DNA from: an uncultured Ktedonobacteraceae bacterium
GTDB taxonomy: Bacteria; Chloroflexota; Ktedonobacteria; Ktedonobacterales; Ktedonobacteraceae
Assembly: GCA_964250765.1 (NCBI GenBank)
Contig: CAXUHF010000016.1
Coordinates: 192-64,191, forward strand
DNA length: 64,000 nt
Reading direction: 5' to 3'
The translations under genes were made by a program, and so were the position numbers. Shown piece by piece: positions 55,885-59,460 of the stretch; position 1 is the first letter of the stretch, and each line of letters opens with the position of its first letter. Below the pieces are notes generated by a model. The model did not search any database. It worked only from the letters and a program-made list of their open reading frames with translations, and had not been told where the DNA came from.

Positions 55885-58800
55885 CTATGAAGAATCCAAA
55901 TTTTCGAGTAGAATAGGCATTTTTCTCCCTATAACTAGCCGCTCTTTCAGACCAACAAGATTATCTTGCTGGCGTCGAATTGCTGCCTGAACGAGGACGC
56001 GAGTTAAGTCTTGAAATGAGGCTGCCGCGATCCAGCTTTCAGTTTGCAAGACCGCTTTTGTAAGACCTAAGAGTACCGGGCGAGCATGAGCTGGCCTTCC
56101 TCCTTGTGCAACGATGAAGGTAACGCATTGCATGTAAGTATAGCGGTCGAGAATCGTACCTACTAGAAGTTCTGTATCTCCAGCATCTACTACCATGACA
56201 TAGCGTAGCAGTTGCCTGACAATAGTCTCCAGATGCTTATCATGGATGTAGACGCCTGTTGAGCGGTATACTCTTTGAACTTCATTGATCAAGTAGCGTT
56301 GTATCGCTTCTTCTCCCTGAAGGTTAAGTATCTCCTGGGGGTTAATTGGCCCTTCGATAAGCGGTGTTCCTACTTCTACTACTTGGCCTTCACGAACGAT
56401 TATCGTTCGGCCAGGAAGAATGTTGTAAGTGTGCTCTTCGTCTCCCTTAGCTTGGACGAATACTTGGCTTTCTTGTGAAAGATGATATTCGTCTAATTGT
56501 GAGGTGGATGCAACGATATGAATACTTTGCTTGCCAGTGTGTATATCCTTTTTAATTGTCCTGACAACTCCACTTATGTCAGCAAGCATGGCAGAACGCT
56601 TTGGGGTACGTGCTTCAAAAAGTTCATTGACGCGCGGTAGCCCCTGTGTAATGTCACCTACTGCATTTGCGATGCCACCGCTATGAAATGTTCGCATGGT
56701 CAATTGCGTTCCAGGCTCTCCAATTGACTGTCCAGCAATGACGCCGACAGCAGCACCGAGACGAACAAGTGTATTTGTTGCTAAATCTATACCATAGCAG
56801 TGCTGACATACACCGTGTGCAGCTAGGCAAAAAAGAGGTGAACGAACGCGAACGCACTCGATACCTTGCTTCTGGAGGAGATCAGCTTTTTCCCAATCCA
56901 AAATGGTCCCTGCTTTCAGATCACCGATAGACTCTGCCAATATCCGTCCTGCAATTTGAGTACGCATATTCGGTAGACCAAGTCGTTGGCTCTCATTGTT
57001 GGTGATGAGTAGACCGTCTGATGTGCCACAGTCTTTCTGAGTGATCCATACCTCCATGCCGACCTCTACTAAGCGGCGCGTAAGGTATCCTGACATAGCT
57101 GTATTGAGCGACCTATCACCAAAACCTTTGCGTGCTCCCGACGCTGCAATGAATTCCTCCCATACAAGCTGCCCTAGAAAGTAGTTAGAGAGTACGGGAA
57201 TTGGAATGATTTGTCCCGAAGGATTTGCCATAAGACCACGTATTCCACTCAACTGACGGATTTGCTGAAACTTGGCCTTGGTCGCTCCAGATTTTATAAT
57301 AGTCATGAGGGTGCCATATGGATCGAGTACATCTTTGAGCTTTCCACTGATCAAGTCTGTGATTTCCGTCCAAATTTCGATGACTCGCCGATACCATTCT
57401 TCATAGGTGATCTCGCCACCACGATATCCACTATCTACCTCTTGCACACGTAGCCTTCCTTGAGCAATGTACTTCTCGCGTTCAGGAGGTATTTTGATAT
57501 CACTAAGAGCAAAGCTGATACCGCTCTTTGTTGCATACTGATAGCCAACCTGTTTGATTTCGTCAACCATACGAACCGTTGCCTCTTCTCCGCATGTGGC
57601 AAGGCTTTCGGTGACGAGAGCTTTCAGTGCATCCTTGGTCATGGGATAATTCCGATAACGTAGCTGGTCGGGCAAAACTTCGTTGAAGATGACTCGCCCC
57701 ATCGTCGTTTGAATTCGTCCACGCTCAGGTGTGTGCGCCTGAACTGGGGGAGCAGAGTTAAATATCTGTGTGTCTGCAATCCGCACCGTGATGTATGTAT
57801 GCAAATCGATGTGACCAGCATCGTAAGCAAGACGTGCCTCATCGATATTTGCAAAAATCCGCCCGGTTTGCTTGTTGCTTGGTCGGTCCTCAGTTAAGTA
57901 GAAGCAGCCAAGTACAATCTCTTGACTTGGATAGACTGATGGATCGCCAGATGCCGCGTTTCGTAAGTTTTGTGTTGAAAGAAGAAGCCGATATGCTTCG
58001 TCTTGAGCTACTTCCGTGAGTGGAACATGGACCGCCATCTGGTCACCATCAAAGTCGGCATTAAAGGAGGAACACACAAGCGGGTGGAGTTGAATTGCGC
58101 TTCCCTCTACAAGGCGGGGCTGAAATGCTTGAATACTAAGCCGATGTAGGGTCGGAGCACGGTTCAGCAACACCACCCGTTCAAACAGAACCTCAGCTAA
58201 GATATCCCAGATGAGAGGATCACGACGCTCTACCATGCGTTTCGCATGGCGAGGTGTCTGAGCATAATTCCGTTCAACGAGTTTATGAATGATGAAAGGC
58301 TTGAACAATTCACAAGCCATTCCTTTGGGAAGACCACATTCATGAAGCAAGAGATCACGTCCAACGACAATGACAGAACGACCTGAATAGTCAACACGCT
58401 TTCCCAGGAGGTTGCGCCGAAACAAACCTTCTTTGCCTTGTAAATGGTCGGTCAAACTCTTGAGTGGTTGACGTTGAGAACCGAGCACTGGTCTTTTCTT
58501 GTGGGCATTGTCGAAAAGAGCATCGCAAGCATCTTGAAGGAGTCGTCGCTCGTTGTTCAAGACGATTTCGGGAGCCTGACGCTCCATAAAACGCTTCAAT
58601 CTGTTATTGCGGTGAATAACTCGCTCATAAAGCGCGTTAATATCCGAAGAGACGTAGCGTCCACCATCAAGTGGTACTAAAGGCCGGAGTTCAGGCGGAA
58701 GAATAGGAAGCACTGAAAATACCATCCATGTAGGATGAAGTTTGGAAGAGCGGAATGCCTCCACCGTATGTAGGCGTTTGATGGCTCTTTTCTGCCCCGC

Positions 58801-59460
58801 GTCTCCTGCTTTAATCTCGTCGAGGAGTTGTCTCGAAAGGATATCAAGATCGAGAGTAGCGAGTAGGGAGTGAATAGCATCCGCCCCAGTCTTAGCCTCA
58901 AAGGACGCACCATACAAAAGAGAGAGAATCCTATACCGACTTTCTTCAAGGATATCTCCACACTTCATTTCGGCAAACTGTGAGCGGAGAACACTTTCAG
59001 AACTATCCTCTGTATCCTGAGAAAGTATCTGCCTACGCATATCCTCGTTTAGTGAAGTGATAAGGTAGCATTGATAGGAGAGTACAGTGGTAAGCACTCG
59101 TGGCGACAGATTGAGAAGAAGAGCAATTGGTCCCGCACCTCGAACATACCACGGATGGACAACTGGTGAGGCGAGTTCTATATGACCCATTCGTTCTCGA
59201 CGAACCGTCGCTGGTGCGAGTTCAACACCACATTTTTCACAGACAAAACCTGCTTTTCGTGTGCGTTGATACTTTTTGCATGCACACGTCCAGTCTTGTA
59301 TTGGGCCAAAAACGCGCTCACAGAAAAGCCCACCTACTTCTGGCTTATGAGTCAGGTAATTAATGGTTTCTGGCTCGGTAACCTCTCCATGACTCCACGC
59401 TCGAATCTGTTCGGGACTTGCAAGACTGATGCGTAAAGCGTGAATATCAAGTGCTTCCAT
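55885..59460 (-). CDS. rpoC: DNA-directed RNA polymerase beta-prime subunit homolog (stand-alone, divergent)
   Basis: 1191 aa. Zn ribbon CACKKY...CEKCG. Catalytic NADFDGDQMAVH. Bridge helix GARKGFGDRSLNTAMSGYLTRRLVEV. Trigger loop GEPGTQLTMRTFHSGG. Second Zn site DCGT...CLAAHGVCQHCYG. Confidence 0.9.
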   Translation of the reverse strand: MEALDIHALRISLASPEQIRAWSHGEVTEPETINYLTHKPEVGGLFCERVFGPIQDWTCACKKYQRTRKAGFVCEKCGVELAPATVRRERMGHIELASPVVHPWYVRGAGPIALLLNLSPRVLTTVLSYQCYLITSLNEDMRRQILSQDTEDSSESVLRSQFAEMKCGDILEESRYRILSLLYGASFEAKTGADAIHSLLATLDLDILSRQLLDEIKAGDAGQKRAIKRLHTVEAFRSSKLHPTWMVFSVLPILPPELRPLVPLDGGRYVSSDINALYERVIHRNNRLKRFMERQAPEIVLNNERRLLQDACDALFDNAHKKRPVLGSQRQPLKSLTDHLQGKEGLFRRNLLGKRVDYSGRSVIVVGRDLLLHECGLPKGMACELFKPFIIHKLVERNYAQTPRHAKRMVERRDPLIWDILAEVLFERVVLLNRAPTLHRLSIQAFQPRLVEGSAIQLHPLVCSSFNADFDGDQMAVHVPLTEVAQDEAYRLLLSTQNLRNAASGDPSVYPSQEIVLGCFYLTEDRPSNKQTGRIFANIDEARLAYDAGHIDLHTYITVRIADTQIFNSAPPVQAHTPERGRIQTTMGRVIFNEVLPDQLRYRNYPMTKDALKALVTESLATCGEEATVRMVDEIKQVGYQYATKSGISFALSDIKIPPEREKYIAQGRLRVQEVDSGYRGGEITYEEWYRRVIEIWTEITDLISGKLKDVLDPYGTLMTIIKSGATKAKFQQIRQLSGIRGLMANPSGQIIPIPVLSNYFLGQLVWEEFIAASGARKGFGDRSLNTAMSGYLTRRLVEVGMEVWITQKDCGTSDGLLITNNESQRLGLPNMRTQIAGRILAESIGDLKAGTILDWEKADLLQKQGIECVRVRSPLFCLAAHGVCQHCYGIDLATNTLVRLGAAVGVIAGQSIGEPGTQLTMRTFHSGGIANAVGDITQGLPRVNELFEARTPKRSAMLADISGVVRTIKKDIHTGKQSIHIVASTSQLDEYHLSQESQVFVQAKGDEEHTYNILPGRTIIVREGQVVEVGTPLIEGPINPQEILNLQGEEAIQRYLINEVQRVYRSTGVYIHDKHLETIVRQLLRYVMVVDAGDTELLVGTILDRYTYMQCVTFIVAQGGRPAHARPVLLGLTKAVLQTESWIAAASFQDLTRVLVQAAIRRQQDNLVGLKERLVIGRKMPILLENLDSS

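Follow-up and report, generated by a model that had tools for sequence, protein, structure and literature searches.

The window analysed here is a 64,000-nucleotide stretch, positions 192 to 64,191 of contig CAXUHF010000016.1, from an uncultured Ktedonobacteraceae bacterium (GCA_964250765.1). It carries a gene for a beta-prime subunit of RNA polymerase (RNAP) together with a conserved partner gene, and these two, with the recurrent accessory genes around them, are referred to as the cassette. The two central genes are as follows.

55885..59460, minus strand: short-class RNA polymerase beta-prime paralog, 1191 amino acids (aa), ATG start
53780..55474, minus strand: conserved partner ORFan, 564 aa, directly downstream of the short beta-prime gene

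"Short" class denotes the beta-prime clade of this 1191-aa protein (the query), and "long" class the housekeeping beta-prime of Ktedonobacteria, of ~1445 aa. Pfam analysis detected Rpb1 domains 1, 2, 3 and 5 of the query above cutoff and domain 4 just under it (19.6 vs 24.8 bits). Against the rpoC equivalog TIGR02386 of NCBIfam (cutoff 963.5), the query scored 1393.3 bits over model positions 2-1137 of 1147; other short-class members reached 1302-1386 bits and the long-class Ktedonobacteria proteins 1700-1714 bits, leaving the query ~310-320 bits below the housekeeping proteins. The PHROG matches to RNA polymerase beta-subunit families were weak (1e-30 to 6e-7), and the best PHROG match was phrog_25354 (1257 bits), a family without stated function. 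As a reading made from the sequence alone had claimed, the gene has no rpoB partner: the window contains no rpoB-sized open reading frame (ORF), the next largest being Cas3 with 801 aa. A tblastn search of PLSDB plasmids yielded no match other than housekeeping rpoC, with less than 60% identity throughout, on records wrongly labelled as plasmids. An exact-sequence look-up of the query gave no match, and a scan of genome contigs yielded housekeeping rpoC of other phyla only. The ORF at 55885-59460 is a real gene for a bona fide beta-prime, other than the housekeeping rpoC.

Two beta-prime classes in Ktedonobacteria

Relatives gathered by a protein search over 5.8 billion proteins fell into two sharply separate beta-prime groups, both from the class Ktedonobacteria (Chloroflexota). 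The short group comprises ~36 clusters of 1159-1245 aa with 56-96% identity to the query over the full length, and its sources include Tengunoibacter tsumagoiensis, Dictyobacter formicarum, D. aurantiacus, D. kobayashii, strain brp13, Reticulibacter mediterranei and Ktedonobacteraceae metagenome-assembled genomes (MAGs). The long group comprises hundreds of clusters of ~1435-1457 aa, which are 51-53% identical to the query and 79-92% identical between genera. In Ktedonobacter sp. SOSP1-85, the long rpoC (P0077) lies in the order rpoB-rpoC-rpsL-rpsG-fusA-tuf-S10. This housekeeping context (rpoB-rpoC-rpsL-rpsG-fusA-tuf) was found at 0/9 short-class loci, which span the whole short clade and consist of the window, L001 (metagenomic, 96% identical), L002 (Tengunoibacter), L003 (brp13), L084 (D. 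aurantiacus), L085 (Reticulibacter) and the deep branches L089, L090 and L091.

Three genomes with resolved contigs carry both classes.

T. tsumagoiensis: long P0130 on a 5,303,167-bp contig, short P0010 on a 2,396,690-bp contig
D. aurantiacus: long P0133 on 6,133,338 bp, short P0020 on 2,748,323 bp
D. kobayashii: long P0136 on 6,031,971 bp, short P0034 on 2,822,873 bp

Short and long rpoC thus coexist in three relatives, with 53-55% identity between the pair from one genome, and presumably also in the window's own genome. The proposal of the sequence-only reading that the gene encodes a second beta-prime paralog is supported by the short and the rpoB-linked long copies in these relatives, by the separate clade and by the identity within one genome. 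The same reading had offered the alternative of an unlinked housekeeping rpoC, that is, the organism's only beta-prime lying apart from rpoB, with which the lack of rpoB in the window would agree. However, relatives with the short clade also carry a canonical rpoB-linked long rpoC, the query reaches only ~52-54% identity to a long clade that is itself 79-92% identical across genera, and universal residues have been lost class-wide. The canonical long copies of the relatives reject this alternative for the family, and for the window's genome, to which we extend the conclusion, it is barely credible.

The contig sizes of these three genomes are exactly those listed by Yabe et al. (Table 1 of PMC13289182), in which the smaller ones are chromid-like (ECE-like) secondary replicons. 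This match puts the short beta-prime on the secondary replicon and the housekeeping copy on the chromosome, so that the short copy lies on an ECE-like replicon in 3/3 resolved genomes. The brp13 cassette is found on a single 8.88-Mb chromosome record and that of Reticulibacter on a 379-kb contig. ECE-like replicons are rich in biosynthetic gene clusters, and no canonical Rep initiator is reported on ECE-like contigs (PMC13289182). RNA polymerase, rpoB and rpoC are not mentioned in this 2026 paper (PMC13289182) or its supplements, and the supplements contain no TIGR marker list.

Two entries are recorded separately. The D. kobayashii protein P0034 was annotated at 923 aa, covering query residues 246-1185, and the N-terminal quarter including Zn site 1 is absent from the gene model, which could be due to a mis-called start, a frameshift or a real truncation. 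Ktedonospora formicarum has a 468-aa homolog of the partner (P0234, on a 309-kb contig) and only a long-class rpoC (P0098) among the matches listed; it may possess the partner without a short beta-prime, or its short copy may merely not be listed.

A neighbour-joining (NJ) tree was calculated from 1114 well-aligned columns of 37 short, 14 long and 15 outgroup sequences. The short clade and the long clade were each monophyletic in 100/100 bootstraps and were sisters in 99/100, within a limited sampling of Chloroflexota that covered the classes of the Ktedonobacteria and Dehalococcoidia sequences. Such a phylogeny with branch lengths had been suggested as a check by the sequence-only reading, and it gave a mean distance from the common node of 0.46 for the short vs 0.19 for the long class, a 2.4-fold longer branch. 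Tengunoibacter and D. aurantiacus are 74% identical in their short proteins and 87.5% identical in their long ones, and these comparisons show the short class to evolve about twofold faster than the long class. Within the short clade, Dictyobacter, Tengunoibacter and brp13 form one group, as vertical descent predicts. The derived states V303C, M725I and Q1244T (Escherichia coli numbering) and a one-residue insertion after position 730 are common to both classes and absent from 15/15 outgroups, and the next best database matches past the short clade are all long proteins of Ktedonobacteria type. These shared states and matches indicate that the paralog is derived from the rpoC of the lineage itself, with no import from another phylum; the short class is, on this sequence evidence, an old paralog family restricted to Ktedonobacteria. 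As an aside from the tree, the rpoC of MAGs labelled "Alistipes" (L065) and "Gammaproteobacteria" (L076) grouped with Firmicutes and Patescibacteria, respectively, which suggests mis-binned contigs in those MAGs.

Between the window and L001, the ratio of nonsynonymous to synonymous substitution rates (dN/dS) was 0.15 for beta-prime, 0.20 for the small upstream gene described below and 0.29 for the partner, and between genera in which dS is still measurable it was ~0.09 for beta-prime. These ratios indicate that the short beta-prime is under purifying selection and not decaying. A decaying duplicate that drifts to a functionless pseudogene would account for the faster evolution, the lost universal motifs and the N-terminally truncated annotation in D. 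kobayashii (P0034), yet it is highly improbable in view of the intact full-length ORFs in ~35 clusters from several families, the dN/dS of 0.09-0.15, the 100% conserved catalytic residues, the novel bridge-helix signature that is itself fixed, and the conserved synteny with the partner.

Conserved and remodelled parts of the short beta-prime

The short class was aligned with beta-prime sequences of E. coli (L088), Firmicutes, Actinobacteria, Dehalococcoidia and Ktedonobacteria, and residues are numbered as in E. coli. The query contains the Mg-binding loop NADFDGDQMAVH (NADFDGDQM), Zn site 1 (C70/C72/C85/C88), Zn site 2 (C814/C888/C895/C898), the bridge helix and the trigger loop (IGEPGTQLTMRTFH). 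Each of these is shared by at least 90% of the 36 sequences of the short class, and the catalytic motifs are identical between the short and long classes. The description of a stand-alone 1191-aa beta-prime with every catalytic element kept was hence confirmed by Pfam, TIGR02386 and the alignment. The divergent strings quoted by the sequence-only reading (INYLTHKPEVGG, HPWYVRGAGP and GARKGFGDRSLNTAMSGY) are literally present, and their divergence could be measured against 444 columns that are at least 93% invariant among 29 housekeeping beta-prime sequences: the query retains 358/444 of these positions, and the short class retains 296/444 in at least 90% of its members. At ~77 universally conserved positions, most short-class members have a different residue.

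Several segments are missing altogether. The ~160-aa insertion of the long class at position 148/149 and ~48 aa of the jaw (1180/1181) are absent from the short class. The short-class proteins stop a few residues past position ~1356 and lack the C-terminal tail, including the LIPAGTG motif at the end of region H that is found in 29/29 housekeeping sequences. This tail is presumably the part that omega latches onto the rest of beta-prime, and its loss therefore suggests that omega-dependent assembly may be altered.

Substitutions fixed in the class occur at sites that are otherwise invariant. In the bridge helix, the short class has H777S (97%), L783F (35/36), A784M/G, T786R (36/36), A787S (100%), D802E (100%) and Q805M; position 786 is T in 29/29 housekeeping sequences vs R in 36/36 of the short class. 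Residues 786 and 787 are taken to contact the templating base, from Pol II and bacterial structures. The F-loop has R764L/F, E765L, L770W, Y772I/E and M743I, and L491R (100% of the short class) lies near the active site. Further changes affect the rudder (G310A, R311H, G313K), switch-2 (K332Q, Q340R), the Zn-binding domain (E69S/T, K81P/A) and the clamp helices (N274H, L282F in 100%). The clamp-helix residues R275, E295 and A302, which we take to be those most important for sigma binding, are retained.

Some of the changed positions are known from inhibitor resistance. Residue 786 of beta-prime is one of only four sites of pseudouridimycin resistance (10.1101/106906). Salinamide resistance maps to eleven beta-prime sites in the bridge-helix cap, which include residues 763, 775 and 783 (PMC4029172); these three are switched class-wide (L783F in 35/36, S775A in 35/36, F763Y in 36/36). 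The short class might thus represent target-replacement resistance, i.e., a drug-insensitive spare beta-prime like the rpoB(R)/rpoB2 precedent of Nonomuraea and Nocardia (PMC5431353), facing an inhibitor of the bridge-helix cap, the i+1 site or the secondary channel that is made by the cell or by competitors. A second target copy changed at the pseudouridimycin site and at three salinamide sites would suit this explanation, but the high-level salinamide sites R738, A779 and G782 (PMC4029172) are unchanged. Moreover, a simple resistance allele needs neither the change of ~20% of the invariant sites nor tail loss nor co-evolving accessory proteins, and beta, which also forms inhibitor pockets, is not duplicated in the cassette.

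The partner, the other cassette genes and their surroundings

A homolog of the partner (546-623 aa) lies immediately 3' of the short beta-prime gene in 8/9 loci, and L091 has fragmented ORFs at this place. The partner and beta-prime diverge in step, with paired identities of 96/94, 79/67, 74/64 and 55-58/29-31%, from which their co-inheritance is concluded. The partner family consists of 52 clusters, all from Ktedonobacteria, and is as narrow as the beta-prime clade. The window protein consists of two strongly hydrophobic N-terminal transmembrane (TM) helices, a disordered S/P/Q/T-rich linker and a C-terminal domain of ~340 aa. According to the positive-inside rule (RFLKRAH after TM2), the C-terminal domain is probably cytoplasmic. 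Its AlphaFold model is confident (pLDDT 90, pTM 0.88), and the modelled order of three strands, three helices, a hairpin and a helical bundle is compatible with a winged helix-turn-helix (HTH) plus a helical domain and with a very remote SARP relationship.

The sequence-only reading had called this neighbour a membrane-anchored SARP-like gene. The membrane anchor holds, given the two TM helices; the SARP identity was not supported by Pfam, hhalign, a PDB profile or Foldseek, and its sole support is a UniRef label on one homolog. The window protein had no Pfam match, and in the family a weak Trans_reg_C match occurred in 1/45 members (E 0.0014) and BTAD in 0/45. Comparison with a genuine SARP of the window by hhalign gave a probability of 4.6%, and the PDB sequence profile gave no significant match. 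Foldseek searches of PDB with the whole chain and the C-domain models returned nothing at E of 0.001 or below, only generic TPR-like helical matches with a TM score of at most 0.26, and BFVD viral models gave no match.

One element stands in the intergenic region between the two genes.

55647..55658, minus strand: TGTTGTATAATT, -10-like element in the beta-prime/partner intergenic region, upstream of the partner

This element is partly conserved between genera, as TGTTGTATACTT in Tengunoibacter, TAGTGTATACTT in brp13 and TTGTATACT in Reticulibacter, which suggests a separate promoter for the partner gene. The remaining cassette genes and intergenic motifs of the window are listed below.

59631..60290, minus strand: small upstream protein, 219 aa, N-terminal HTH and conserved C-terminal Trp-rich module
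60451..61239, minus strand: 262-aa protein with a weak winged-helix (MarR_2-like) signal
52762..53391, minus strand: 209-aa DUF2690-like protein
53573..53659, plus strand: GTGGGTAGGT array, 6 copies, intergenic, just past the partner gene
61440..61495, plus strand: GTGGGTAGGT array, 5 copies, divergent promoter region between the 262-aa and 292-aa genes
59529..59538, minus strand: one GTGGGTAGGG copy, within the 170 bp preceding the beta-prime start codon

Homologs of the 219-aa protein lie directly upstream of the short beta-prime gene in 4/9 loci. This family, with 51 representatives in 1.84 billion, is as narrow as the beta-prime clade, and its HTH weakly matches sigma-70 region 4 in 8/25 members (best E 4e-4, sub-threshold). 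Homologs of the 262-aa protein recur in four loci and adjoin the short beta-prime gene in L001, L003 (as a WD40 fusion) and L084. The DUF2690-like family (~200 aa) was found by clustering in 6/9 loci, and in L091 a separate DUF2690 protein is encoded directly upstream of beta-prime. For the 292-aa neighbour, described from the sequence as resembling thymidine kinase, such similarity is only sub-threshold. None of the cassette proteins had a match in PADLOC, which addressed the idea of a defence system, and a phage library likewise gave no support for the accessory genes.

The G-rich GTGGGTAGGT motif occurs 15 times in the window (at most one mismatch), whereas 2.0 copies are expected and none of 100 shuffles had more than 5. 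Its two arrays at 53573-53659 and 61440-61495 bracket a four-gene module, and further copies are located at 48822-48874. In L001, the sites at 7965-8013, 9923, 15820-15877 and 22221-22265 are conserved in position with those of the window, and the GTGGGTAGGG copy also has an equivalent there. The GTGGGTAGGT arrays are confined to the window and L001, being absent from other genera, and are not a family-wide feature; they may be candidate operators for the HTH proteins of the cassette. Consensus promoter and terminator counts at 52-62 kb showed no excess over shuffles, and scans of the window with Rfam (gathering threshold) and for tRNA gave no match.

Beyond the cassette the loci differ, and plasmid or mobile-element genes recur. 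Replic_Relax proteins of ~700 aa lie within ~5-8 kb of the short beta-prime gene in L002, L085, L089, L090 and L091; the matches exceed the cutoff in L090 (44.2 bits) and L085 (36.0 bits) and are faint or weak in the other three. In the loci of relatives, a ~900-aa protein with sub-threshold TraG/TrwB similarity adjoins a DUF87/AAA_10 ATPase, and a CHAP/LysM hydrolase, tyrosine integrases (L089, L091), insertion sequence (IS) elements and defence-type genes (GmrSD, TIR, SAVED, NB-ARC) also occur around the cassettes. The claim of a replication-relaxation-like neighbour in the window did not survive: no window protein matches Replic_Relax, the 647-aa and 262-aa proteins show no similarity to the Replic_Relax proteins of other loci, and the true Replic_Relax genes flank the cassette in other genomes. 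As an observation in its own right, L091 has a sigma-70-family gene at 4316-5173 (regions 2 and 4, 285 aa), ~3 kb upstream of the short beta-prime gene and among the DUF87/AAA_10 ATPase, coupling-protein-like and Replic_Relax genes.

These surroundings raise the possibility that the cassette is machinery of a mobile element or replicon, namely a backbone component of a plasmid, an integrative and conjugative element or a chromid, whose polymerase would perform an element-specific job such as host-independent transcription of element genes or the synthesis of primer or origin-activating RNA where no canonical Rep initiator is present. The changed residues 786/787, which we take as templating-base contacts, would fit such a job. 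The ECE-like location in 3/3 resolved genomes, the ECE-like contigs without a reported canonical Rep initiator (PMC13289182), and the nearby Replic_Relax proteins of five loci with the weakly coupling-protein-like, DUF87/AAA_10, CHAP/LysM, integrase and IS genes point in the same direction. On the other hand, the window's own flanking genes have no conjugation, replication or Replic_Relax match, the brp13 cassette is on the 8.88-Mb chromosome record and that of Reticulibacter on the 379-kb contig, the relationships within Dictyobacteraceae look vertical, and neither the phage library nor PADLOC supports the accessory genes, so that this explanation is considered unlikely.

The window also contains biosynthetic genes. 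A lasso-peptide-like cluster is located at 35496-39629 on the minus strand, 16-20 kb from the beta-prime gene. It includes a candidate 55-aa precursor at 39462-39629 ending in ...ITVQT/GQGGNSSEYDSYSDNRK, in which Gly1-Glu8 could form the ring, an Asn-synthase-type cyclase (37601-39337), a transglutaminase-core protease (36618-37574) and an APH-family kinase (35496-36527). Several lasso peptides inhibit RNAP through the secondary channel, and the proximity of such a cluster would, like the richness of ECE-like replicons in biosynthetic clusters (PMC13289182), favour resistance by target replacement. Against it, the lasso genes are found in the window only, and at the eight other loci the 8-10 kb around the cassette contain neither lasso genes nor other biosynthetic core genes. 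Considering these points with those from the protein, resistance is a possible but rather unlikely explanation.

Other genes of the window stand further from the cassette. A probable aromatic (type II) polyketide cluster at 17298-27953 contains ketosynthase genes KS-alpha (25006-26286) and KS-beta (23690-25009), an O-methyltransferase with a dimerisation domain (19714-20787), a metallo-beta-lactamase-fold protein (17298-18284) and a methyltransferase (27084-27953). Two genuine SARP-type regulators at 40399-41718 and 45870-47777 are within 10-15 kb of the cassette, one with BTAD at E 1.6e-13 and the other with BTAD at E 3.1e-16 plus TPR; BTAD/TPR proteins are also near the cassette in L002 and L003. 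Together with the CRISPR-Cas genes below, the polyketide and lasso-peptide-like clusters fit a secondary-metabolite-rich accessory region as reported for ECE-like replicons. A type I CRISPR-Cas region occupies 1136-10314 on the minus strand, with Cas1 (1136-2323), Cas6 (2242-3228), a Cas3 HD-helicase (3267-5672), a Cas7/DevR-like protein (6403-7479) and a WYL/WCX HTH regulator (9340-10314), and a tandem-repeat scan revealed no CRISPR array in the window.

A possible second polymerase isoform and known systems

The explanation that best accommodates these results, with a probability of roughly 55%, is a second RNA polymerase isoform that contains the short beta-prime and is governed by the cassette proteins. 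The short beta-prime would replace the housekeeping beta-prime in a fraction of the alpha2-beta-beta-prime cores, and since the Mg-binding triad, the Zn sites, the trigger loop and R275/E295/A302 are kept, replacement in some cores is the most likely arrangement. The altered bridge-helix cap, i+1 site, rudder and switch-2 and the lost omega-latch tail would then make its kinetics, pausing and response to inhibitors different. Control or targeting of this isoform would fall to the cassette proteins: the partner, anchored in the membrane, may tether the isoform or sequester it, and the HTH protein resembling sigma region 4 may direct it. The isoform would serve replicon-specific or condition-specific transcription.

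Several findings weigh against this second-isoform explanation. Of the 444 conserved positions, 148 are not kept in at least 90% of the short class, T786, A787 and the LIPAGTG motif at the C-terminus being among them; the enzyme could accordingly be defective or have a task other than ordinary transcription. Only the partner is near-universal, the other accessory genes being present in 4 to 7 of the 9 loci. In addition, the accessory proteins have no recognisable homologs and the sigma-4 matches are sub-threshold.

A more radical version, which is considered quite improbable, assumes a self-contained replicon-borne device that combines the re-engineered residues T786R/A787S and tail with its own sigma-4-like protein, a membrane anchor and the host beta and alpha subunits, and serves the chromid-like replicon. 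The polymerase would have altered template or substrate behaviour and would not be a mere kinetic or resistance variant. It would produce origin-activating or primer RNA for a replicon without a canonical Rep initiator, or transcribe incoming DNA during transfer.

To our knowledge, bacteria follow the textbook picture of a single RNAP core that is diversified only via sigma factors, the exceptions being rpoB paralogs in a few actinomycetes and the two alphas of Francisella. If a second isoform exists as proposed, soil Ktedonobacteria can probably build two kinds of RNA polymerase core. A family with an intact active site but altered invariant residues at bridge-helix 786/787, in the N-terminal hinge and in the F-loop also offers a natural experiment on the nucleotide-addition cycle, and the short class may be a natural source of inhibitor-insensitive RNAP. 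Three or four lineage-specific proteins of unknown fold are fixed partners of the short beta-prime, and this points to an as yet unexplored mode of core polymerase control or targeting. There is a practical consequence as well. TIGR02386 is, as we assume, a GTDB bac120 marker, in which case paralogs above its cutoff can inflate the marker counts or contamination estimates of Ktedonobacteria genomes and MAGs and could distort completeness estimates of the MAGs. On the same condition, the 1-7 "marker genes" that PMC13289182 reports for ECE-like contigs probably include short rpoC genes.

Full-text literature searches on beta-prime (rpoC) paralogs or duplications, and on Ktedonobacteria with rpoC, returned nothing relevant, and the short beta-prime family is apparently undescribed so far. 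Its closest counterpart is the long-class RpoC (P0077, P0130), which like the query belongs to the TIGR02386 family, has the five-domain architecture and carries V303C/M725I/Q1244T in the sister clade. Unlike the short class, it has the rpoB/rpsL/fusA context, the ~160-aa insertion, the ~48 aa of jaw and the LIPAGTG tail.

Among duplicated core subunits, rpoB(R)/rpoB2 of Nonomuraea gerenzanensis and Nocardia farcinica (PMC5431353) likewise give a soil bacterium that is mycelial and has a large genome a second copy of a large catalytic subunit, and their substitutions at inhibitor-resistance positions imply two RNAP forms per cell. The short class differs in that it is a beta-prime and not a beta, with ~54% identity and indels instead of a handful of substitutions, and in being conserved across genera with a dedicated accessory cassette and a location on a secondary replicon. 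The two non-identical rpoA genes of Francisella (PMC3294249) are another lineage-wide duplication of a core subunit in which both copies are retained. However, the Francisella alphas enter every enzyme as a heterodimer and have no accessory cassette (PMC3294249), whereas a core holds one beta-prime, so that the short and long paralogs must be alternatives. The beta-prime-like subunits of the multisubunit RNAP of jumbo phages are similar as non-housekeeping homologs on mobile genomes, in line with the weak PHROG matches; in contrast to these, the query is a full-length, single-chain, cellular-type protein derived from the host lineage, with no cognate beta-like gene nearby. Compared with the known core-subunit paralogs, what is new in the short class is the involvement of beta-prime, the deep divergence, the remodelled active-centre residues and the dedicated accessory cassette.

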